Positions 11,931 through 24,705 of a stretch of DNA of 64,000 nucleotides are shown here, piece by piece (positions within the stretch are counted from its first letter, which is position 1; the number at the start of each line of letters is the position of its first letter). Both the position numbers and the translations under genes were made by a program. Under the pieces are notes generated by a model. It was not told the DNA's origin and searched no databases. It saw nothing but the letters and a program-made list of their open reading frames with translations. The DNA comes from Planctomycetota bacterium (GTDB taxonomy: Bacteria > Planctomycetota > UBA1135 > UBA2386): contig JBKAGP010000001.1 of assembly GCA_046290465.1 (NCBI GenBank), positions 672,001-736,000 on the forward strand, read 5' to 3'.

Positions 11931-13193
11931 CTAGAAGTAGAGCGTCGCCTGCGCGTAGCCGACCTGACGCTGGTCGTCGTCGATCGCGTAGCCGGCGCCG
12001 ACGTGCAGGCCGGGCCGCACCATCTTGCCGACCAGCAGGTCGAACTCGAGTTCGCCGAGCTGGGTCGCCGCGCCGTCGCGGTCGAGGGTCAGCACGGTCG
12101 CGGTGCAGTCGAGGTCGAAGCCCGGCGTGAACTGCGCGCTCAGCTGGTTGGTGTCGAGGTCACTGCGCCAGATGCCGCCGTACTGGTGCAGCAGGCCGGC
12201 CGAGTTGAAGTCGGCAGGGTTGATGTGCAGCGCGCCTTCACTGTCGGTGCGGGTGAACGCGACCGCGCGCAGGAAGCCGCAGCAGGGCTCGTCGAAGGTG
12301 TATTCGAGGCGCGCGCGGTAGGCGGTGACGTCGTCGCCCATGTCGACCGAGCGGTGGGCGAACTGCGCCTCCCATTTGAGGTTCTCGGTGAAGTGGCCGA
12401 CGCCTTCGAGGCCGGCCCAGTTGTCGTTGGCGTTGCGCTGCACGTCGCCGTCGTTGGTGCCGGTCATGAAGTAGGCGTTGAGGGTCTCGAGCAGTCCGTC
12501 CTCGCAGGCGTTCCAGCGCGCGGTGCCGCCGGCGTAGCGTTCGCCGCCGCCGACCAGCTGGCTCTGCAGCGGACCGTAGTTGTCGAACGCGAACGCCTCG
12601 ACGTCGATGTCGCCGAAGCTGCGCGACACCCAGATGCCGGTGAACGCACCGGGGTACTGCAGGAAGTCACACGAGCCGAGCACCATGCCGTTGGCGAGGA
12701 AGTAGTTGCTGCGGCCGATGCGGATCCGTTCGTCGAAGCCGAACGCGTCCTCCAGCTGCATGTAGGCCTGCGCGATGCCGTTGAAGTTCTCGCGGGACAG
12801 GATGCCGTTCGGTCCCTGCTGGAACGGCGCGGCGTCCGAGTAGCCCTCGGCACCGGCCCAGACCTCCGAGTAGTTGAACTCGACGTAGGCCTGCGCCCAC
12901 TCGTTGACCTCGTAGTCGAGCTGCAGGCGCGTGCGCGTGCTGTAGTTGTCGTTGGCGTTGTAGGGGGCGTCGTCCGGGGTCTCGGCGAAGCGACCGCGCA
13001 GGCGGGTGTCGCCGGTGAACCGCAGCTTGTCGGAGCGCAACGTCAGGCCGGTGTCGACCCGTTCGACCTCGTCGCCGGGAGGGGCGAAGCTGAAGCAACG
13101 GTTCTGCGGTGAGTAGCACTGCTGCGCCACCGCGACCTGGGACACGCAGAGGACCGCAGCCACCGTGGCTGCGGTCGAGAGGAGCTTGATCAT
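11931..13193 (-). CDS. outer-membrane beta-barrel protein (alginate-export/porin-like)
   Basis: Signal peptide, R-x-R-x-x-x-E and RTRLQLDY strands, QAY...IRIGR, terminal aromatic residue (TLYF). Confidence 0.7.
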   Translation of the reverse strand: MIKLLSTAATVAAVLCVSQVAVAQQCYSPQNRCFSFAPPGDEVERVDTGLTLRSDKLRFTGDTRLRGRFAETPDDAPYNANDNYSTRTRLQLDYEVNEWAQAYVEFNYSEVWAGAEGYSDAAPFQQGPNGILSRENFNGIAQAYMQLEDAFGFDERIRIGRSNYFLANGMVLGSCDFLQYPGAFTGIWVSRSFGDIDVEAFAFDNYGPLQSQLVGGGERYAGGTARWNACEDGLLETLNAYFMTGTNDGDVQRNANDNWAGLEGVGHFTENLKWEAQFAHRSVDMGDDVTAYRARLEYTFDEPCCGFLRAVAFTRTDSEGALHINPADFNSAGLLHQYGGIWRSDLDTNQLSAQFTPGFDLDCTATVLTLDRDGAATQLGELEFDLLVGKMVRPGLHVGAGYAIDDDQRQVGYAQATLYF

Positions 13194-13269
13194 CTGGCTT
13201 GCTCTGCTGTGAGAGAGTGGCGGCCGATGCCGCGGAGCAAGTCGATGACGTGGAAGCTGGAGAGCGCCG

Positions 13270-13419
13270 TGAACTCTTGGCTCAGAAGTTCAGGGGGAAC
13301 CGACCGGCTCCCCGGCTCTCCACGGAACCTGCTCCGTGGATCAGCCAGGGGTTGCTTCACGTGTATGGAAGCAATGGGGTCTGGATCGGTCGGTCGATCA
13401 CGCGACGAACCATATCGCG
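13270..13419 (-). promoter_or_regulatory. structured 5' leader (six adjacent hairpins), candidate cis-regulatory RNA
   Basis: Stems TGAACT/AGTTCA, GGGGA/TCCCC, TCCACGGA/TCCGTGGA, TTGCTTC/GAAGCAA, GATCG/CGATC and CGCGA/TCGCG. Plus-strand A.C mismatches become G.U pairs on the minus strand. Confidence 0.45.
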
Positions 13420-13517
13420 CAGCCGCGACGGCGGACGTCGCGAATTGTCGCGAAGTTGTCCGGCAAAGCCTGCGTTGCCGTGCAGCGCTTGGGTTTGCCA
13501 TTGCATCGCCGCGCCGC

Positions 13518-13532
13518 TGGCAGGTTCAATGC
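13518..13532 (+). promoter_or_regulatory. possible sigma54 (-24/-12) promoter for the dsrE operon
   Basis: TGGCAGGTTCAATGC has GG-N10-GC spacing but is an imperfect match to TGGCAC-N5-TTGC. Confidence 0.3.
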
Positions 13533-13814
13533 GCGCTGTCCCGGAACGCGCACCCGCCGATGAACCACCCCCGCAGACATTGACACCCCTGAGCCCGGCC
13601 CGGGCGGGGTGCGGTCTGCGCCCCTCATCGGCCTCTCGCTGCCGTTCCGACGCAGGCGTAGCGCATCGCGCTCGCACGGCTTGGGGCGGGCGGGGTCGTG
13701 TGCCTTGGTCAGGCTCTCGGACGGACACGCGCCGTTCCGCTGGATCGATCCACACCGAGCCCCTTGACCCGAACCCTGAGCCCCGAACCCCGAACCCCGG
13801 GGCAAGCCGAAGCC

Positions 13815-14180
13815 ATGAGCAACACATTCTGCGTCACCATCACCGAGTGCAAGACCAACGAGGACAAGGCCACGCTCGGCTTCGTCGTCGCCAACGCCGC
13901 GGTCGGCAGCGAGAAGGAGACGATGGTCTTCCTGAGCGCCGACGGCGTCTGGGCCGCCGTGCAGGGGGAGATGGACAAGGTCGCGGCCGGCGAGCCGTTC
14001 GTGCCGCTGAAGGAGCTGGTCGACAAGTTCGTCGCCAACGGCGGCAAGATCCTGGTCTGTTCGCCGTGCATGAAGAAGCGCGGCATCACCGAGGACCAGC
14101 TGGTGGCGGGTGCGACCCCGGCCGGCGGTGCCGCGCTGGTCGAGTGGCTCGCCAACGGTTCGCCCAGCGTCGGCTACTAG
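13815..14180 (+). CDS. DsrE/DsrF-like family protein
   Basis: 121 aa. ATLGFVVANAA, VFLSADGVW and ILVCSPCMKKRGI. Confidence 0.88.
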   Translation: MSNTFCVTITECKTNEDKATLGFVVANAAVGSEKETMVFLSADGVWAAVQGEMDKVAAGEPFVPLKELVDKFVANGGKILVCSPCMKKRGITEDQLVAGATPAGGAALVEWLANGSPSVGY

Positions 14181-14190
14181 GGAACGGTCC

Positions 14191-14946
14191 GTGCTGACCC
14201 CCGAACAACTTGCCGGACTCGAGCCCGACCGCGTCTTCGACGGCGGCGCGCTCGACTGCGGATCGGGTCTGGTGCTGCTGATCCGCGAGAACATGCTGCC
14301 GGTGCCCGACGCCGGCGTGCTCGAGATCCGCAGCGTCGAACGCAGCGTGCGCGACGACCTGCCGCCGTGGTGCCGGATGGTCGGCCACGAGTTCCTCGGC
14401 GCGCTGCCGGGGGCGAGCCCCGAGCAGGCGCGCTACTTCGTGCGGCGCGGCGGCGGCGCGGCGATGCAGCAGGAGGCGGCCGCGCTCGAGCAGGACAAGC
14501 AGCGCGCGCGCGACTACCAGTGGCGGCTGCGGGCCCGTTCGTCGGCGCCGCTCGAGACGTCGGTCTACTGCCGCAACTTCCAGTGGCGGATCGGGCAGCC
14601 GGCCAGCTTCGAGGAGCAGGACGCCAACCCGTCGGCGATCGAGTCGCTGGTCGGAGCGCTGGCGGGGGACCTGGTGACCGGGTTCGCGGTCGCCGCATCC
14701 CGGGCAGGCCTGCAGGTCGACGACATCGAGTTGACCGCGCGGGCCCGCCTGCACGACGTCACCGCACACCTCGGCCTGGTCGAGGGCGACCCTTCGATCG
14801 AGTCGATCGAGGCGCGTCTGTTCGCGTCGACGTTCGACGACGAGGCGCGGGTGCGGGCGGTCTGGGACCAGACCGTGCGCCGGTCGCCGCTCGCTGCGAC
14901 GCTCCGCAAGGCCACCCGGCTCCACATCACCCTGGCAATCGTCTGA
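14191..14946 (+). CDS. TusA/SirA-like sulfur carrier fused to an OsmC-like domain
   Basis: TusA part FDGGALDCGSGLVL...DLPPWCRMVGHE. OsmC fold NPSAIESLVGALAGDL...DDIELTARARL...RRSPLAATL. Confidence 0.8.
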   Translation: MLTPEQLAGLEPDRVFDGGALDCGSGLVLLIRENMLPVPDAGVLEIRSVERSVRDDLPPWCRMVGHEFLGALPGASPEQARYFVRRGGGAAMQQEAAALEQDKQRARDYQWRLRARSSAPLETSVYCRNFQWRIGQPASFEEQDANPSAIESLVGALAGDLVTGFAVAASRAGLQVDDIELTARARLHDVTAHLGLVEGDPSIESIEARLFASTFDDEARVRAVWDQTVRRSPLAATLRKATRLHITLAIV

Positions 14947-14960
14947 CCGAGGAGAGGCCG

Positions 14961-16115
14961 ATGTTTTCCGTTACCCAGGTCGGCAGCTGGCCGCGTTCGC
15001 GCAAGCTGCTGCAAGCCCTCCGCGACAAGCAGCAGGGGCGTGCGAGCCGCGCCGAGTTCGAGGCCGTCGCCGACGAGGAGGTGCGTCGCTGCGTCGCGCT
15101 GCAGGTCGAGGCCGGGGTCGACGTGGTCGTCGATGGCGAGCATCGACGCGACAACTTCTACTCGTTCGTCACCGACAAGCTGTCCGGCACCCGGCTGATG
15201 TCGCTGGCCGAGATGCTCGAGTCGATGGAGGACAAGGCGGCGTTCGAGGAGATGCTCGAGACGCTCGACGTGCCGGCGTCGGCGATCCGCAACCCGACCT
15301 GCACCGGCAGGCTCGAACGGCGTGAACCGCTGGCGACCGAGGAGCTGCGGTTCGTGCAGCAGCTGACCGACAAGCCGGTCAAGGTCTCGCTGCCCGGGCC
15401 GTACCTGCTGACCCGTTCGATGTGGGTCGGGGCGTTCTCGCGCGCCGGCTACGACGACAAGACCGAGATGGGCGACGACGTGGTCCGGATCCTGCGCGAG
15501 GAGCTGATCGAACTGCGCGACGCGGGCGTATCGTTCGTGCAGTTCGACGAACCGGTGCTGACCGAGGTCGTGATGAGCGACGACAACGACCGGCGAACAT
15601 TCATGTGAGCCACCCTTGCTACCCGCCGTGATGCGGGTGCCGAACTGGAATACGCCGCGACGCTGCTCAACCGGGTCGTCGACGGCGTCGACGGGGTGCG
15701 TACGGGGGTGCACGTCTGCCGCGGCAACTGGAGCCGCCAGGAGGACGTGCTGCTGACCGGGGACTACGAACGGCTGCTGCCGGCCTTCCGCGCGATGCGC
15801 GTCGACCAGTTCGTGCTCGAGTACGCGACGCCACGCGCCGGCGAGCTGTCGGTCGTCGGCCGTGCCCTCGCCGATCGCGAGCTGGGGCTCGGCTGCGTCA
15901 ACCCGCGCACCGACGAGGCCGAGGATCCGGCGACGATCGTGGCGCGCGCCGAGGAGGCGCTGGCGTACTTCCGCCCGGAGCAGGTGTTCCTCAACCCGGA
16001 CTGCGGCTTCGGCTGCTTCGCCAATCGCTGCGTCAACGTCGAAGACCACGCGGTCCAGAAGCTGCGCAGCATGGTCGCGGCGGCGCGGCAGCTGCGGGAG
16101 CGGCACGGCGGATGA
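14961..16115 (+). CDS. cobalamin-independent methionine synthase II (MetE C-terminal-like) family protein with in-frame TGA, probable selenocysteine at residue 216
   Basis: VGSWPR, DGEHRR and QFDEP lie before TGA 15606-15608. The same frame continues to HVCRGN, LEY and NPDCGF (Zn ligands). 384 aa with read-through. SECIS-like hairpin follows; RBS GAGGAG precedes the start. Confidence 0.88.
15618..15640 (+). promoter_or_regulatory. bacterial SECIS-like hairpin
   Basis: GC[T]ACCCGC-CGTGAT-GCGGGTGC: 8-bp stem with a bulged U and a GU-containing loop, starting 9 nt after the UGA. Confidence 0.75.
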
Positions 16116-16726
16116 GCGCGTCGGCCGACGACGACGACGAGACGGGCGATCCGCGCACGGTGGCGGCGCTCGCCGACGCGGCGGCGTTGACCGGTGCTCC
16201 GTGCCGGCGCTGCAGCAGGGCGCTGTGCGGCCACGAAGCGGTCTACTGCCTGGTGCTCGGCTACAAGGGGGCACCGCACTGCCTGCCGTGCATCGCCGCG
16301 CACATGGGCGAAGCGCTCGCACCGCTGCGCGAACGTGGCTTCGAATACGTGCGGCACCACGACTGCTTCCTCACCGCGTGGCGGCACGCCGGCGACCTCG
16401 AGGGCCATGCCGGAGTCGATCGGCCGCCGTGCGTGTTCGCGCTCGACGAAGATCCCGCCGCTGCGGCGCAGGCGGGCGCAGGGCGCGATGCGGTGGCCGA
16501 GGCCCAACCGTCCGGGCATGCGAGCTGGGACGCCGGCGGCATGGGCTGTGGCGACCTCGTGCTCGAACTGCGCCAGCGGCTGGCGAAGCTGCCGCCGCGC
16601 GGCCTGCTGCACCTGATCGCCACAGACCCTGGTGCGCCGACCGACCTGCCCGCCTGGTGTTCGATGACCGGGCACACGCTCGAGTCCGCCGAGCACCCGG
16701 ACTATCGCATCCGCCGCCGCCCCTGA
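16112..16726 (+). CDS. Cys-rich (putative Zn-binding) domain fused to a TusA-like sulfur carrier
   Basis: CRRC..LCGH...HCLPC...HHDC followed by WDAGGMGCGDLVL...ATDPGAPTDLPAWCSMTGH. ATGA overlap with the upstream gene. Confidence 0.82.
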   Translation: MSASADDDDETGDPRTVAALADAAALTGAPCRRCSRALCGHEAVYCLVLGYKGAPHCLPCIAAHMGEALAPLRERGFEYVRHHDCFLTAWRHAGDLEGHAGVDRPPCVFALDEDPAAAAQAGAGRDAVAEAQPSGHASWDAGGMGCGDLVLELRQRLAKLPPRGLLHLIATDPGAPTDLPAWCSMTGHTLESAEHPDYRIRRRP

Positions 16727-16758
16727 ACGGCCGGCGGTCGCCTGCACGCGGGCTCGGC

Positions 16759-17121
16759 TCAGAGCCGCACGTTCTCGCGGCGCATCTCGCCGTCGTCCTG
16801 CTCGACCAGCCGCACGAAGTGCGCGCCGCGCGCGAGCGACGAGCGCTGCAGCAGCGGCCGCAGCACGCCGAGCAGCTGGTCCTCGTCGGGGCCGCAGAAG
16901 AACAGGATGCACTCGCCGCCGCCGAACTCGTCGCCGTCGTACTCGCCGACGCCCGCGTCCAGCACCGCCGCCTCGAGCTGCTCGGCCAGCAGTTCGATCT
17001 GGGCACGCTCTTCGTGCGTGCCCATGTTGCGGTTGCTCAGCCGGAGCACGACGAGCAGGTCCCGCTCGTCGGCGGGATCCTCGTCGTCGAAGCCGAAGTC
17101 GGGCAGGTTCTGGTCGCTCAT
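16759..17121 (-). CDS. small acidic hypothetical protein
   Basis: 120 aa with coding-like codon use; GVGEYDGDEFGGGECILFFCGPD. Confidence 0.75.
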   Translation of the reverse strand: MSDQNLPDFGFDDEDPADERDLLVVLRLSNRNMGTHEERAQIELLAEQLEAAVLDAGVGEYDGDEFGGGECILFFCGPDEDQLLGVLRPLLQRSSLARGAHFVRLVEQDDGEMRRENVRL

Positions 17122-17159
17122 CGCGAGCAAGTCTAGCCCGACGGGGGCCGGCCGCGCGA

Positions 17160-18296
17160 CTACGGGTCGAGCGTCAGCGTGTCGGCGGTGGCGACGATCG
17201 CGAAGGTCGTCGGGTCCTGGCTGACGGCGCTGGCGTAGGTCGTGATGCCGAGCAGGGCGGTGGCGCTGGGCAGGCCGAAGTAGACCGCGTCCCGGTCGTT
17301 GTCGACCGTGCCGTAGGCGAGCGGCAGCGACGCGACCGCAAGCGTCAGGCCGTCGACCGTGAAGTTGCTCTGCCAGCCGTTGGCCGGATCGATCTGGAAC
17401 GCGCCACACGCCGGCGCGGTGAAGCCGATCAGCAGGATGTTGGAGTCGCCCGGCTCGCCGGCGTTGCGGCACACGTAGCCCGGCAGGTTGGGGTCGTACT
17501 CGACGTAGGTCACGCGCAGGCCACCCGCGAACAGGTTGTTGTTGGCGTTGCCGCCGTTGCGGTCGTCCATCCAGGTGACGACCACGTCTCCGCGGGTGGT
17601 GACGGCGACCACCGCGTCGGCGTCGGCGTCGATCGCCGCCGGGTCGACCAGTTCGCAGTAGGTCCAGGTCGTGCCGAAGTCGTAGGTGAACGCGACCGCC
17701 GCCGGGTCGGCGCCGGCGATGTTGTCGACGAACGTCACCGCCGCGTAGCTGCCGTGGCAGTCGAGCAGCGGCGTGCTGGTGTTGCCCTGCGAGATCAGCG
17801 TCTCGGTCTGCAGGCCGGCGAGGAAGTCCGCGCCGCCGTTGGGGTCGGTGACGACGAACGTCTGGTTGGCGCCCGAGCGGTCGTCCTCGTAGCTGACGTA
17901 GAGCGCGCCCTCGGGCGTGCAGCCGACGGCCATGCCGTCCGAGTCGACGCCGGCGGGCGACATGCTGACCACGACCGGCGGCACGAACGTGCCCGGCGCG
18001 CCCGAGGTCGTGCTGAGGTAGAGGTAGCAGTCGTCGTCGCCGCCGCGGGAGTCCTCGGTGAACACCGCCACCGAGTAGTTCGGCGCCTGGCCGAACACGC
18101 ACAGCTGGCTCTCGCGCTGCGCGGCGAACGTGGTCGGCGCGGCGAACGAGGTCAGGTTCTGTTCGGCGCCGAAGGTCGCGCCGTCGTCGGTCGACACCCG
18201 GATGACGGTGTCGTTCCAGTTGTTGTTGCCGACGCCGGCGGCGGCGCGGTCGTCCTGCCAGCCGACCACGACCAGGTCGTCGACGCAGGCCACCAT
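17160..18296 (-). CDS. sialidase/BNR (Asp-box)-like beta-propeller protein, possibly 5'-truncated
   Basis: Asp-boxes STDDGATF and TYDFGTTW, repeated W/Y-x-DDR motifs. No signal peptide; start uncertain (18296 or 18383). Confidence 0.65.
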   Translation of the reverse strand: MVACVDDLVVVGWQDDRAAAGVGNNNWNDTVIRVSTDDGATFGAEQNLTSFAAPTTFAAQRESQLCVFGQAPNYSVAVFTEDSRGGDDDCYLYLSTTSGAPGTFVPPVVVSMSPAGVDSDGMAVGCTPEGALYVSYEDDRSGANQTFVVTDPNGGADFLAGLQTETLISQGNTSTPLLDCHGSYAAVTFVDNIAGADPAAVAFTYDFGTTWTYCELVDPAAIDADADAVVAVTTRGDVVVTWMDDRNGGNANNNLFAGGLRVTYVEYDPNLPGYVCRNAGEPGDSNILLIGFTAPACGAFQIDPANGWQSNFTVDGLTLAVASLPLAYGTVDNDRDAVYFGLPSATALLGITTYASAVSQDPTTFAIVATADTLTLDP

Positions 18297-18555
18297 CGGG
18301 CGGCGAGATGGCTCCAGAACTCGGGGAGTGGAAGATGGCTCCACTGCTCGGCCGGCAGCCGGGGCGTTCCGTGAGCGGTGCATGAAGGTCGCGACCGGCG
18401 CTGGATCTGCGTGCGATCTTGTCCGTTCGTTGGCCGTCGGCTGCGCAGCAGGGCCCGGGCCGGGGGCGGGCGACAAAGCCTGGTGCGCGGCGCCGCAACA
18501 ACCGTCGCGACGCTGGCCAAGCGGACCCCACCCGCTATGCTGCGGGGTTCGAAAC

Positions 18556-21500
18556 TTGGCCACGAACTCGAAAACCACCTCCCGCAGGGCCGCTCCGGCG
18601 GCGCCGAAGCGGGCCCGCAAGAAGGCCCGCAAGAAGGCCCGCAAGAAGGCAGCTGGGGCGCCGGCGCAGGCGCCACAAGTCGTGGTGCGGGGGGCGCGTG
18701 AGCACAACCTGAAGAACGTCGACCTGGCGTTCCCGCGTGATTCGCTGACGACCTTCACGGGCGTCTCGGGCTCCGGCAAGTCGAGCCTCGCGTACCACAC
18801 GATCTACCAGGAGGGCCAGCGGCGCTTCCTGGAGAGCCTGAGTTCGTATGCGCGGCAGTTCCTCGGGCGCATGGAGAAGCCCAAGGTCGACCACGTCGAA
18901 GGCCTGTCGCCGACGGTCTCGATCGACCAGAAGTCGACCAGCCACTCGGCGCGCTCGACGGTCGGCACGCTGACCGAGGTGATGGACTTCCTGCGGCTGT
19001 GCTGGTCGCGGCTGGGCGAGCCGAGCTGTCCCGAGTGCGGCGCGGCGATCGAGTCGTGGTCGCCCGATCGCATCGTCGACGCGATCGTCGCCGAACACGA
19101 CGGCCAGGCCGCGATGGTGCTGGCGCCGGTGGTGCGCGAGCGCAAGGGCGAGTACCGCAAGGAGCTGGTCGAGTGGGCGCAGAAGGGCTTCGTGCGGGCG
19201 CGCATCGACGGCGTCGTGCGCCGCCTCGACGAGGACATCCAGCTCGAACGCTACGTCTAGCACACGATCGAACTGGTCGTCGATCGCCTGACGATCAAGC
19301 CGGAAGTGCGGTCGCGGCTGGCCGAGGCGGTCGAGCAGGCGGTGCAGCTCGGCTGTGGCCTGTGCACGCTGGTCGACGGCAAGGGGCAGGACGACCGGCT
19401 GTTCTCGACCCAGCGCAGCTGCCCGGACGGCCACGGCGCGCTGCCCGAGATGGAGCCGCGGCTGTTCTCGTTCAACAGCCCGATCGGCGCGTGCCCGAGC
19501 TGTGACGGCATCGGCGAGACGTTCGGTTTCGCGCCGGAGCTGTTGGTCCAGGACGAGAACAAGTCGATCCGCGACGGCGCGCTGCACGTGTTCACCGACC
19601 AGGGCCGGCTGGTCTACGGGCGGTTGACGATCGAGCACCTGCAGGGCGTGCTCGAGGCGTTCGGCGGCGACGTCGACACGCCGTGGAAGAAGCTCGGCAA
19701 GCGGGTGCAGAAGGTCGTGCTGCACGGCTCGGGCAAGAAGAAGTTCGAGTTCAAGTGGCAGCGCAAGACCGCGATGTTCACGACCTCGGGCAGCGACAAG
19801 GTCGCGTTCCCCGGCGTGCTCGGCCACCTGGAGAAGGTCTACCGGCCGTCGCGTGCGCGGCACCTGGATCGCTTCCGGGCCGCCACGCCGTGCGCCGAAT
19901 GCGACGGTTCGCGGCTGTCCGCGGCGGCGCGGGCGGTCACGTTCTGCGGCCGCACGTTGCCCGAAGTGCTGGCGATGTCGGTCGACGACGCGCTGGCGTG
20001 GGTGCGTGCGATCGAACTGAGCGGCAACGACCTGCGCATCGGCCGCGACATCCTCAAGGAGATCGACCGGCGGTTGACGTTCCTGGCGGACGTCGGCCTC
20101 GGCTACCTGACGCTGGCGCGCCGCGCCGCGACGCTGTCGGGCGGCGAGTCGCAGCGGATCCGGCTGGCGGCGCAGGTCGGTGCCGGCCTGCGCGGCATCC
20201 TCTACGTGCTTGACGAGCCGAGCATCGGCCTGCACGCGCGCGACCAGCAGCGGCTGCTCCGCACGCTCGAAGCGCTGCGCGACCGCGGCAACACCGTGGT
20301 CGTCGTCGAGCACGACGAGGAGACCATGGAGCGCAGCGACTTCCTGGTCGACGTCGGCCCCGAGGCGGGCGCGCACGGCGGCCGGGTGGTGGCGGCGGGC
20401 ACGCCCGACGAGGTCAAGGACAACCCCGCGTCGATGACCGGCCGCTACCTGCGCGGCGACGTGCAGGTGCCGATGCCGGCCGAACGCCGCCGCGAGGATC
20501 GCGGGGCGCTGCGGGTCCGCGGCGCGCGCCACCACAACCTCGACGGCCTCGACGTCGACCTGCCGCTCGGCCGGCTGACCGCGGTCACTGGGGTTTCGGG
20601 TTCGGGCAAGTCGACGCTGGTGCACCACGTGCTGGTGCCGACGATCAAGGATCACCTCGCCGACAAGGGCGTCGCACCGGCGCACTGCAAGGCGGTCGAC
20701 GGCATCGACCAGATCGACAAGCTGGTCGAGATCGACCAGAAACCGATCGGGCGCACGCCGCGCAGCAACCCGGCGACCTACACCGACGTCTGGACCCACG
20801 TGCGCGACCTGTTCGCGATGCTGCCCGAGTCGCGGCTGCGCGAGTACAAGAAGGGCCGGTTTTCGTTCAACGTCGCCGGCGGCCGCTGCGAGGAGTGCCA
20901 GGGGGCCGGCGTGAAGACGCTGGAGATGAACTTCCTGGCGCCGGTCGAGGTCGTCTGCGAGGAGTGCGCCGGCGCGCGCTTCCACGCCGACACGCTGGCG
21001 ATCCGCTTCAAGGGCAAGAGCGTCTACGACGTGCTCGAGATGACCGTCGAGGATGCCGCGGCGTTCTTCGCGGACCTGCCCAAGATCGCGCGCGGCCTCG
21101 ACGCGCTGCTGGCGGTCGGCCTCGGCTACCTCAAGCTCGGCCAGCCGTCGACGACGCTGTCGGGCGGCGAGGCGCAGCGGGTCAAGCTGGCGACCGAGCT
21201 GCAGCGTCCGGCCACCGGTCAGACGCTCTACATCCTCGACGAGCCGACCACCGGCCTGCACTTCCAGGACGTGGCGCGCCTGCTCGACGCGCTGCAGCGA
21301 CTGGTCGACGCCGGCAACAGCGTGCTGGTCATCGAACACAACCTCGACGTCGTGCGCGCCGCCGACCACCTGATCGACCTCGGCCCGGAGGGCGGCGTCG
21401 GCGGAGGCCGGCTGGTCGCGACCGGCACGCCCGAGGAGGTCGCCGACCTCGACGACTCGCACACCGGCAGGGCGCTGCGCGCGATGGGGCTCGGCAAGAA

Positions 21501-24500
21501 GCGCCGCCGCAAGGCCGCCAGGAAGGCCGGCAGCCAGGAAAGCGACAAGGGTGGGGCCGCGAGCGCGCGCAGCGCGCCGCCCGAGGCGATCTCGGTGCGC
21601 GGCGCGCGCACGCACAACCTGCAGGCGGTCGACTGCGACGTGCCGCTGGGCAGCTTCACGGTCGTCACCGGTCCGTCGGGGTCGGGCAAGTCGAGCCTGG
21701 CGTTCGACACGATCTTCCAGGAAGGGCAGCGCCGTTTCCTCGAGAGCATGTCGACGTACGCGCGCCGCTTCCTCGGCCGCATGGACCAGGCGCCGGTCGA
21801 CAAGCTCGACGGGCTCGGCCCCGCGATCGCGATCGACCAGAAGCGCACCGGCCGGAGTCCGCGCTCGACGGTCGCGACGACCACCGAGATCCACGACTAC
21901 CTGCGTCTGCTCTACGCGCGCACCGGCCGGCACCACTGCCCGACGCACGGCCAGGAACTGGTCGCCTGGTCGCCGAGCAAGGCGGCCGCGCACCTGGTGC
22001 AGCAGCACGCGGGGGCGCGCGCCTACGTGCTGGCGCCGGTGACCGTGCCCGTGCTGAAGGGCAAGGCGGCGGTGCAGTGGCGCGACGCGCTGCTCGAGCA
22101 GTGGCGCACGGCCGGCTTCGTGCGCGCGCTGGTCGACGGCGAAGAGCGGCGCCTCGACGACGACTGGGGGCGCAAGCTGCCCGGTTCGCTCGACCTGGTG
22201 GTGGACCGCACCACGCTGAAGGACCGCACCCGCCTGGCCGACGCGATCGAACAGGCGCAGGCGCAGACCCGCGAGCACGACGGCCAGGTCGCCGCGGTCG
22301 TGCAGGTGGTGCCGAAGGACGCCGAGCCGGAGCGGCACTGGTTCGGGGCCGAGCCGAGCTGCGAGCACTGCGACTACCGCGCGCCCAACGACCCGCACCC
22401 GCGCTGGTTCTCGTTCAACCACCACAGCGGCGCGTGCAGCAGCTGCCTCGGTCTCGGCAAGGTCGTGCTGTGCGCCGAGGAGCTGCTGGTCAACCACCCG
22501 CACAAGCCGGCGTTCGGCGGCGCGATCTCGCACAGGGGCGGCCACTTCACGTTCCTGACCGGGACCGACGGTTACTACCACGAGGTCGCGTCGGCGGTCG
22601 CCGAACGGTTCGGCTTCGAGCTCGAGCAGCCCTGGAACAAGCTGAGCAAGCAGGCGCGCGAGATCCTGCTGCGCGGCGCCGGTGACGAGCGGTTCGAGGT
22701 CGTCTTCAAGAAGGACGACGGCGGCCGCAAGCGCGAATGGCGCATGAAGGTCGCGTGGAAGGGCTTCGCCAGGCAGGTCGAGGACTGGTTCCACGGCCGC
22801 GACGCCGACCACGAGGACGGCGACGATCGGCTGGCCGCGGTGATGCGCAGCGAGCTGTGCCCCGTCTGTGAGGGCGATCGCCTGCAGCCGGGACCGCGGC
22901 ACGTGCGGGTCGGCGGCGTGCGCATGCCGGAGGTGCTGGCGCAGACGGTCGACCAGGCCAGCGAGACGCTGGCGAACCTGCAGCTCGACCGCACCGAGCA
23001 GCGCATCGCGGCCGACGTGCTCAAGGAGCTCGAGCACCGGCTGTCGTTCCTGCGGGAGACCGGCCTCGGCTACCTGTCGCTGGACCGCTCGGCGGCGACG
23101 CTGTCGGGCGGCGAGGCGCAGCGCATCCGGCTGGCGACGCAGCTCGGCAACAAGCTGGTCGGCGTGCTCTACGTGCTCGACGAGCCGACCGTCGGCCTGC
23201 ACCCGCGCGACACCGAGCGGCTGCTGAAGACGCTGCTCGACCTGCGCGACCTCGGCAACACGGTGCTGGCGGTCGAACACGACGAGGTGATGGTGCGCGC
23301 CGCCGACCACGTGCTCGACATCGGGCCGGGTGCCGGCGTGCGCGGCGGCAAGGTCGTCGCCAGCGGCAAGCCGGCCGAGATCGCCGGCAGCGGCACGCTG
23401 ACGGGCCAGTGGCTGAGCGGCACGCTGCCGATCGAACGGCGCGAGGCGCCGCGCGAAGCCGCCGGCTACGTCGAGCTTCGCGAGGTGTCGGTGCACAACC
23501 TCGACCGCGTCGACGTCGACGTGCCGCTCGGCGTGTTCACCGCGATCACCGGCGTGTCCGGCTCGGGCAAGTCGTCCTTGGTGATGGACGCGCTGGTGCC
23601 GCAGCTCAAGGACGGCAGCGTCGACGTCGTCTGGAACGACGAGGAAGAACGGCACCACCAGCTGATCGTGGTCGACCAGTCGCCGATCGGGGTGTCCCCG
23701 TCGAGCAACCCGGCGACCTACACCAAGGCGTTCGGGCCGATCCGCGAGCTGTTCGCGGCGACCCCGCTGGCGCGCCAGAAGGGCTTCGGCGCCGGTCGGT
23801 TCTCGTACCACGTCGCCGCCGGCCGCTGCGCCAACTGCGAGGGCAAGGGGCAGATCCAGGTCGAGATGCACTTCCTCGCCGACGTCTGGGTGACCTGCGA
23901 GATCTGCCGCGGCAAGCGCTACAACCAGGAGACGCTGACGGTCGAGTACCGCGGCAAGAACATCGCCGACGTGCTGGCGATGGACGTCGACGAGGCGCTG
24001 CAGTTCTTCGGCAACCACAAGAAGATCGTGCGGCCGCTGCAGCTGCTGCACGACGTCGGCCTCGGCTACCTGACGCTCGGCCAGCCGGCCAACACGTTCT
24101 CGGGCGGTGAGGCGCAGCGGATCAAGCTGTGCGCCGAGCTGCAGCGCCGGCCGAGCGCGCACACGATCTACGTGCTCGACGAGCCGACCACCGGCCTGCA
24201 CGCCGACGACGTGCAGAAGCTGCTGCGCGTGCTGCAGCGGTTGCTCGATCGCGGCGACTCGGTGATCTGCATCGAGCACCACCTCGACGTGATCGCCGCC
24301 GCCGACCACGTGATCGAGATGGGGCCCGAGGCCGGCGACGGCGGTGGACGCTGCGTCGCCGCGGGAACCCCCGAAGCGCTCAGCAGGATCCAGGCCAGCC
24401 ACACCGGCCGGTTCCTGAAGGACCACCTGCAGGCGCTCGCCACCGCGGGCGCAACGGCCAGCGAGAAGGCGGCGCCGCGGAAGAAGGGCGCTCGGAAGAC

Positions 24501-24705
24501 GGGCGCGACGAAGAAGGCGCCCGCGAAGAAGGCCCCCGCGAAGAAGGCCCCCGCGAAGAAGGTCCAGAAGAAGAAGGTCCAGAAGAAGAAGGCCCAGTCC
24601 AAAAAGGCCCAGACGAAGAAGGCCCCGAACACCACGGGGCAGCAGCAGAAGGCTCAGGGAGCGCGGCGCAGCGCGTCGCGCAAGACCCGAGAGGAGATCG
24701 GATGA
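18556..24705 (+). pseudogene. uvrA: double-length excinuclease ABC subunit UvrA interrupted by one in-frame TAG (19258-19260)
   Basis: ORFs 18130..19260 and 19306..24705 share a frame. Four Walker A (GxSGSGKS) and four SGGE signatures plus Zn fingers. Reads ERYV*HTIELVVDRL across the stop. Pseudogene versus sequencing error is unresolved. Confidence 0.85.
24511..24630 (+). repeat. 15-bp coding tandem repeat (KKAPA/KKVQK) x8 in the UvrA tail
   Basis: AAGAAGGC(G/C)CCCGCG x3, AAGAAGGTCCAGAAG x2 and three further variants. Confidence 0.85.

Follow-up and report, generated by a model that had tools for sequence, protein, structure and literature searches.

Organization and conservation of the operon

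The stretch analysed here, referred to throughout as the window, comprises 64,000 nucleotides (nt) of a Planctomycetota bacterium (GenBank assembly GCA_046290465.1, contig JBKAGP010000001.1, positions 672,001 to 736,000), has a G+C content of about 71% over its whole length and comes from a genome assembled as one contig of 6.59 Mb. On its forward strand lies a compact set of four genes, G1 to G4, in which proteins related to sulfur carriers surround a short zinc enzyme of the MetE type. G1 (13815..14180, 121 amino acids, Pfam DsrE) encodes a DsrE-like carrier with a CSPC motif, and G2 (14191..14946, 251 amino acids, GTG start, Pfam OsmC) a protein with a TusA and an OsmC domain. G3 (14961..16115, Pfam Meth_synt_2) encodes the short MetE-like enzyme, which attains its 384 amino acids by readthrough of an in-frame TGA, and G4 (16112..16726, 204 amino acids, Pfam TusA) joins a Cys-rich N-terminal domain to a TusA-like domain. 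The gaps between G1 and G2 and between G2 and G3 measure 10 and 14 nt, and G3 and G4 overlap by 4 nt (ATGA), in exact agreement with the tight packing described in an earlier reading of this DNA (the original prediction). In the open reading frame (ORF) map a convergent gene follows G4.

All nine loci with enough flanking sequence in the window's own order hold DsrE, two TusA domains and the enzyme. Gene order is that of the window in two of them; in the other seven the counterpart of G4, a TusA gene standing by itself, precedes DsrE, and this gene has the Cys-rich N-terminal domain in four of the seven (L033-L036). The OsmC domain is missing from four of the seven (L036-L039, from relatives G038, G025, G028 and G036), in which a single open frame encodes both the TusA domain and the enzyme, connected by a Pro/Ala-rich linker. 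The same layout, again without OsmC, was found in the database protein P0005, the only clear TusA::enzyme fusion among the three matches of a search for longer homologues.

A wider scan located the enzyme at no fewer than 581 species-level genome loci, in bacteria of many phyla and one archaeon. The best 80 of these at least 581 loci, one genome per species, are here called the distant loci; 61 of them are flanked by 2.5 kb or more on either side, and all partner counts, made by tblastn with our own query sequences, refer to these 61. An OsmC-like gene is the commonest partner near the enzyme (56 of 61), followed by DsrE plus TusA (27/61), a two-domain rhodanese (13/61), an SBP-like gene (12/61) and an acyl-CoA-dehydrogenase-like (ACAD-like) gene (9/61), while five loci hold none of these partners. 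A sulfur-transfer gene is thus present in 40 of the 61, either as DsrE plus TusA (27) or as rhodanese (13). Three architectures recur, namely TusA-DsrE-TusA::OsmC-enzyme, enzyme-OsmC-rhodanese and OsmC-ACAD-SBP-enzyme, and they coincide largely with clades of the enzyme tree. Among NCBIfam families the ACAD-like and SBP-like genes come nearest to Rv1679 and Rv1680, respectively, with scores under the cut-offs.

Because the gene set is found in 9/9 of the relatives' loci and in 27 of the 61 distant loci, in other phyla, the arrangement is far beyond chance, and this conservation argues that the four genes are one functional module, as had been proposed. The set of partners had to be revised in part. 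OsmC proved to be the most frequent one, and DsrE and TusA are not obligatory, as a rhodanese or the ACAD-like/SBP-like pair can substitute for them. Likewise, the Cys-rich TusA gene of the original prediction is present in the window, but its Cys-rich N-terminal domain is restricted to certain lineages and was seen in only 6 of the 80 distant loci.

Several loci have features of their own. A gene for a cytoplasmic SBP-like (Rv1680-like) protein and an ACAD-like (Rv1679-like) gene are consistently paired in loci such as L064, L092 and L101, where they separate the OsmC-like gene from the enzyme, and in an archaeal genome (L102, Nitrososphaerota) the enzyme stands beside OsmC-like and rhodanese genes. 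In some loci further genes (DUF4268, HD domain, prolyl oligopeptidase) are inserted, which give the impression of local additions. In the window itself the operon is preceded by an unusually long intergenic region of 621 nt (13194..13814, forward strand), which runs from a divergent porin-like gene to G1 in the ORF map and presumably contains the promoter or leader. No Rfam match at E<=1 was found in this region, and a riboswitch search of window positions 12900-17200 at the same threshold was also negative; a simple scan detected no sigma-70-like site in 13194-13814, and the promoter and terminator scan gave nothing useful.

Selenocysteine in the MetE-like enzyme

The frame of G3 contains a TGA at 15606..15608 (forward strand), which alignment to Cys orthologues and the selenocysteine (Sec) machinery of the genome identify as a UGA codon for Sec at residue 216 (U216), within the motif R-T-F-M-U-A. 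Among the 80 distant loci the site is TGA in 33 and Cys in 47, with the surrounding xFM[U/C] loop motif invariant in 80/80, and in the 33 TGA loci, which belong to at least seven phyla, the frame stays open and conserved beyond the codon. Within a set of 41 related genomes, 12 (the window's own included) hold a strong orthologue, with TGA at the same place in five and Cys in the others; the relative G015 has Cys at the position of U216. Contigs assembled from two independent public DNA runs span the TGA with no change listed at the codon, and the nearby downstream differences seen in one independent strain are synonymous.

At 15621..15638 (forward strand), 12-13 nt after the UGA, folding and alignment revealed a hairpin like a selenocysteine insertion sequence (SECIS), with a G+C stem of 5-6 bp and a 6-nt loop. 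Across 18 aligned Sec-form loci two of the stem pairs are formed in 18/18, one in 17/18 and two in 16/18. The folding z-score of the window hairpin by itself is unremarkable. The peptide encoded by the hairpin, ATLATRRDAG, is kept among the Sec forms and is variable among the Cys forms. The genome encodes selA, selB, selD (which itself has a TGA) and tRNA-Sec, all scoring above curated cut-offs, so that three features of bacterial selenoproteins were found, namely a UGA-Cys alignment with a conserved frame, a SECIS stem-loop and the Sec machinery. A preliminary maximum-likelihood tree, built quickly, placed 14 Sec forms of seven phyla together with one Cys reversion in a single group (support 100), suggesting that the Sec clade has a single origin. 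Metatranscriptome data contributed one run with short pieces only, at about 95% identity, which probably come from a relative and are no proof of transcription.

One might suppose that the TGA truly terminates G3 or is an error, that the gene is broken and that the gene order is fortuitous. Gene callers do cut such genes short, and the best full-length database matches are only 72% identical and are Cys forms. Such a broken gene is extremely improbable, as it conflicts with the open, conserved frame after the TGA in so many phyla, with the Cys that occupies the site in the remaining 47 of the 80 loci, with the synonymous differences just downstream in the independent strain, with the conserved hairpin and with the complete Sec machinery of the genome; as far as sequence analysis allows, it is refuted. 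Because Cys is found in all 47 of the orthologues that do not have TGA, the hairpin is conserved and selA, selB, selD and tRNA-Sec are present in the genome, we regard the TGA at 15606-15608 as a real Sec codon. The enzyme can accordingly keep the designation of selenoprotein that the original prediction had given it, on the TGA/Cys alignment over 80 loci and the conserved hairpin.

Fold, zinc site and loop of the enzyme

G3 is the only PF01717 protein of the genome, matching Pfam Meth_synt_2 (PF01717) over residues 3-376 with 114.1 bits (cut-off 21; 1.1e-32). Meth_synt_1 gave only a local match of 21.6 bits (cut-off 27) within the 384 amino acids, which confirms that the N-terminal folate-binding barrel is missing. 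Scores were also below the cut-offs for the full-length MetE equivalog TIGR01371 (97.7 bits, cut-off 929.95) and for the MesA-type NCBIfam model PRK04326 (177 bits, cut-off 406). The zinc site of PF01717 is retained, its ligands H251, C253, E287 and C348 being invariant in 41 sequences, and so is the homocysteine-binding triad S9, E60 and D196, which is invariant and aligns with S22, E73 and D188 of the MesD-type structure 3RPD; in 3RPD, as in MetE, this triad binds homocysteine or methionine. These residues correspond to S433, E484 and D599, which bind homocysteine in the E. coli enzyme (Price et al. 2021), a mapping made from the 3RPD alignment together with section 11 of that paper (PMC7857596). 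The AlphaFold2 (AF2) model of G3 (pLDDT 89.7, pTM 0.91) was matched by Foldseek to 3RPD and to the catalytic barrel of MetE from T. maritima with TMq of 0.74-0.75.

Behind the DEP strand the enzyme has about 30 additional residues to which nothing in 3RPD or MetE corresponds, and U216 is part of this insertion. The residue is not among the four canonical zinc ligands, and the Zn/Sec enzyme of the original prediction needs the correction that Sec sits in a family-specific loop. The loop was modelled with no regular structure and at lower confidence over residues ~209-224 (pLDDT of 71, 57 and 79 for the successive 10-residue blocks of 201-230), and it would lie, as a probably flexible element, on the catalytic face of the barrel, from where it might bring U216 to the zinc. 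Since Sec and Cys interchange at this one position, which is invariant in all 80 loci, the interchange marks the loop residue as reactive.

Carrier proteins and neighbouring sequence

G1 matched Pfam DsrE with 56.2 bits (cut-off 22.7; 4.9e-15), and C82-x-P84-C85, K87 and R89 are invariant in 35/35 DsrE orthologues. The predicted CSPC motif is thus present, and the protein combines the DsrE/TusD family match with conserved cysteines at C82 and C85. In the DsrE orthologue of a Krumholzibacteriia metagenome-assembled genome (L046:421-783), codon 16, which does not correspond to a Cys position, is an in-frame stop.

The G2 protein consists of a TusA-like domain (~1-85), a long helix and an OsmC-fold domain (~114-250). 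In the window protein the TusA part stays under the threshold (NCBIfam PRK00299, 20.3 bits), and it is evident from its orthologues and from PDB profile matches to TusA/YhhP (~4e-4); its cysteines C23 (DCGSG) and C61 (PxWC) are invariant (alignment A5). For the second domain, Pfam OsmC matched with 30.7 bits (cut-off 27.5), the AF2 model (pLDDT 93, pTM 0.83) was aligned by Foldseek to the OsmC-like structures 1LQL, 2ONF and 1ML8 with TMt of 0.81-0.87, which establishes the OsmC fold, and a PDB profile search named 2OPL (GSU2788) as the nearest solved OsmC-like protein. Arg and Glu residues of the domain are invariant in the alignments. The two cysteines of the OsmC protein 9WO1 are replaced by Asp and Ser in the window protein, and the first of these columns is Cys in only 6 of 14 aligned sequences (L107, L109, L100, L085, L078, L102). 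Because both peroxidatic Cys positions are lost, the OsmC domain is not a peroxidase in this genome. Both domains predicted for this gene are therefore present, with the correction that the OsmC domain is without the peroxidatic positions here.

G4 matched Pfam TusA (PF01206) with 37.1 bits (cut-off 28.6; 2.9e-9). Its C-terminal TusA-like domain (140-199) carries the GCGD and PAWC cysteines, and its Cys-rich N-terminal domain (residues ~25-110) matched no Pfam or NCBIfam family; a search of the Atlas likewise returned no family for it, only weak zinc-ribbon leads, and a cluster of 920 members with the same architecture. Classical TusA, as in E. coli, uses a single active Cys in a CP motif. G4 and the N-terminal domain of G2 belong to the TusA family with a CG motif instead, and both keep two invariant cysteines, in CG(S/D) and PxWC. 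A complex prediction for the Cys-form enzyme and the TusA-OsmC protein of Brocadia pituitae (A6, A7) scored 0.01 and carries no weight either way.

Elsewhere in the window, a giant UvrA-like frame occupies 18130-24705 on the forward strand; it comprises two UvrA units and a tail rich in Lys and Ala (KKAPAKK). It is broken by an in-frame TAG at 19258-19260, after which the same frame resumes; this would fit a pseudogene, an error or two separate genes.

Discussion

Price, Deutschbauer & Arkin 2021 (PMC7857596) described the core methionine synthases MesA-D, and MesD with its partner MesX invites comparison with the module. Like G3, MesD is a single MetE-type barrel without a folate domain that has the zinc ligands and the Ser/Glu/Asp triad, and like the module it needs a dedicated neighbouring partner. 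The MesD-type 3RPD is the best solved sequence match to G3 (3e-38) and is structurally close (TMt 0.83), with about 19% identity in the structural alignment. However, only G3 has the extra loop of about 30 residues with its invariant Cys/Sec, many members of its family are selenoproteins, and it is accompanied by OsmC-like, TusA and DsrE (or rhodanese) proteins, whereas the partner of MesD is DUF1852. MesX (PF08908) was not found in the genome, in a search to which control genomes were equally silent, and the sections consulted of Price et al. 2021 (PMC7857596) make no mention of OsmC, TusA, DsrE, rhodanese or selenocysteine. The C-terminal barrel of MetE (T. maritima 1XDJ/1T7L) has the same fold as G3 (TMq 0.74-0.75, E ~5e-21) and the same H-x-C, E, C zinc site and GS(W/F)PR, DGE and DEP motifs, but G3 is without the N-terminal barrel of MetE and has the Sec/Cys loop as an insertion.

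The carriers have their relatives in other systems. G1, G4 and the N-terminal domain of G2 share Pfam membership with the TusA/DsrE(FH)/TusBCD relay and rhodaneses, in which, as in the module, small Cys carriers are encoded together beside their acceptor. The acceptor here is a MetE-fold enzyme and not tRNA-thiolation, Dsr or sHdr machinery, and the module differs from classical carriers in the CG(D/S) and PxWC cysteines of its TusA-like domains and in the CxPC pair of its DsrE. DsrE-like (UxxC) and OsmC-like (UxxT) selenoprotein families, which belong to metagenomic selenoproteomes, are listed in the tables of two selenoproteome reviews (2022, 2026). The CSPC of G1 corresponds to the UxxC pattern, the module carriers being Cys forms here; the OsmC partners of the module scored 22-58 bits with NCBIfam NF041052 (OsmC-related (seleno)protein), all under its cut-off of 95, and the OsmC Cys position is Asp in this genome, in contrast to the UxxT proteins. 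A TusA-like protein has also been tied to selenium metabolism by comparative genomics, in the YedE/YedF pair (Lin et al. 2015, as cited in PMC9312934); no YedE-type transporter was noticed in the module, for which no search aimed at YedE was made.

The reading that we tentatively prefer, and that may quite possibly be right, is that the carriers load sulfur or selenium onto the Cys or Sec of the loop and that the enzyme acts on a substrate of the homocysteine or methionine type. Three carriers that each have a conserved Cys pair, namely the DsrE-like protein with its CxPC, the TusA-like protein encoded on its own and the TusA part of G2, would relay a chalcogen atom, which would be sulfane sulfur or perhaps selenium. 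The last of these carriers would dock on the enzyme, as the natural fusions suggest, and the relay would terminate at the invariant Cys/Sec (residue 216) of the flexible, family-specific loop on the catalytic face of the zinc enzyme. The loaded loop might then deliver the atom to the zinc site for reaction with a homocysteine- or methionine-type amino acid held in the S9/E60/D196 triad, while the Cys pairs of the carriers would resolve the mixed (seleno)disulfide left behind and the OsmC-fold domain would serve as a non-peroxidatic partner, as scaffold or ligand binder. What we infer, in contrast to what was observed, comprises every transfer as well as the nature of the chalcogen and of the product.

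That the enzyme receives sulfur or selenium is argued most strongly by the fact that three different sulfur-related gene sets are wired to one and the same enzyme. The relay is further supported by the single open frame that joins the TusA domain to the enzyme in L036-L039 and P0005, by the two invariant cysteines kept in both types of carrier and by the invariance of the zinc ligands and the triad. Carried further, this could amount to a form of sulfur or selenium insertion into a four-carbon amino acid that has not been described, in which a loop persulfide or thioselenide, activated by zinc, would form the C-S(e) bond of homocysteine or (seleno)methionine independently of pyridoxal phosphate (PLP), with TusA/DsrE, rhodanese or an ACAD-like/SBP-like organosulfur branch feeding it interchangeably; we consider this distinctly unlikely.

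The functions suggested by the MetE fold itself have to be weighed against such a relay. Because the genome has a full-length MetH (1688 bits) and the relative G038 holds full-length MetE in addition to the module, the module is not simply the methionine synthase of the cell, and a plain or back-up role of that kind is unlikely, in line with the doubt about ordinary methionine synthesis already expressed in the original prediction. The enzyme might still be a fifth folate-independent "core" methionine synthase, in which the OsmC-like protein and the carriers provide or restore an uncommon methyl donor or else maintain the enzyme in its reduced state, much as MesX serves MesD. The residues that serve Price et al. 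as criteria, those of the zinc site and of the homocysteine triad, are completely conserved, which would fit this role, as would 3RPD as the closest solved relative by sequence, an almost universal dedicated partner (the OsmC-like gene of 56 out of 61 loci) and the fact that the G3 homologue is the only candidate of the MetE/MetH type in Brocadia pituitae. We nevertheless think it rather unlikely. Apart from the MetH of the genome and the MetE of G038, full-length MetE occurs in only one further genome of the 41 in the window's order (2/41 in all), and 30 of the 41 have neither module nor MetE, so that no complementary distribution of the two was found in that order; neither a S-adenosylmethionine (SAM) nor a B12 riboswitch was detected upstream of the operon in the window or in 11 other loci; and methyl transfer to homocysteine requires neither a Sec/Cys loop nor sulfur carriers. 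The gap in Brocadia also proves nothing. In the Brocadia order, likewise sampled with 41 genomes, MetH (E<=1e-60) was found in none and a PF01717 protein only in the four with the module, and the other 37 of the 41 (among G248-G287, the order of G042) have neither. The argument that the module fills a gap in Brocadia was dropped, given that these 37 genomes manage without MetH, PF01717 protein and module.

A more specific form of the relay would make the enzyme a PLP-independent homocysteine synthase, a zinc-activated loop persulfide attacking an activated homoserine or aspartate-semialdehyde derivative to form the C-S bond. Sulfur donors of three kinds tied to the same enzyme and the retained amino-acid-binding triad agree with this, and Brocadia was again informative at first sight. 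No full MetH, MetE, HcyBio or Cys/Met PLP enzyme was found in Brocadia pituitae, no Cys/Met PLP enzymes were found in two further Brocadia genomes, and a figure legend of Lawson et al. 2017 records methionine synthase as present in Brocadia with the other steps of the methionine pathway not identified. Yet the rest of the Brocadia order is also without the module, the window genome and four other holders of the module have ordinary PLP Cys/Met enzymes, and there is no precedent for such chemistry on a MetE fold, which leaves this proposal quite improbable.

The module could instead be specific for selenium, the carriers holding it as selenotrisulfide and the enzyme forming or methylating a selenol (selenohomocysteine, selenomethionine, methylselenol) in assimilation or detoxification. 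In favour of this can be cited the Sec of the enzyme itself in 33 of the 80 loci, the known Sec forms of the DsrE-like (UxxC) and OsmC-like families in the tables of the two reviews, the Cys pair of each carrier as opposed to the single Cys of classical TusA, and a selD with in-frame TGA in all five complete genomes that carry Cys forms. In a Bacteroidales locus (L063:1-4446) selA, selB and selD lie just upstream of a TusA-DsrE-TusA::OsmC-enzyme module, the sole such case in 80 loci. A role confined to selenium is nonetheless unlikely, as rhodanese, DsrE and TusA are classical sulfur carriers, sel genes adjoin the module in just that one locus, and the background of selD is too high for its association to mean anything. 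The association with selD was accordingly rejected as evidence for selenium, the 5/5 of the Cys-form genomes being uninformative against a background as high. Among 201 sampled Chloroflexota genomes, of which only four gave strong enzyme matches, 145 have selD, a count that includes the unpublished G083, G207 and G226 (142/198 without them).

The relay that we prefer has its own difficulties, several of which were met above. With selD near-universal (40/41 genomes in the window's order and 145/201 in Chloroflexota) and selA, selB and selD beside the module in one of 80 loci, sulfur and selenium are not distinguishable as the atom relayed. The SECIS hairpin is conserved in the 18 aligned Sec loci without compensatory changes or covariation. 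Finally, 9-12 of the 61 full-flank loci are without a recognisable sulfur carrier, having the ACAD-like/SBP-like pair in its place, and five of the 61 hold no partner at all of those listed.

The family is large, comprising at least 7,878 protein clusters (90% identity) at E<=1e-70, and its database names are generic throughout ("methionine synthase II family" or "MetE"), with the Sec forms split in two by gene callers. Full-text literature searches found no paper that describes the module or a MetE-fold selenoprotein; the main text of the selenoproteome reviews of 2022 and 2026 contains no methionine synthase, MetE, PF01717 or COG0620, and the text of the Haft 2022 preprint nothing relevant to the module. 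Metabolic reconstructions that count the gene as a methionine synthase may thus be wrong, an example being the "Met(?)" given for Brocadia in the figure legend of Lawson et al. 2017. A sulfur relay tied to a zinc alkyl-transfer site would point to chemistry for which no precedent has been described.

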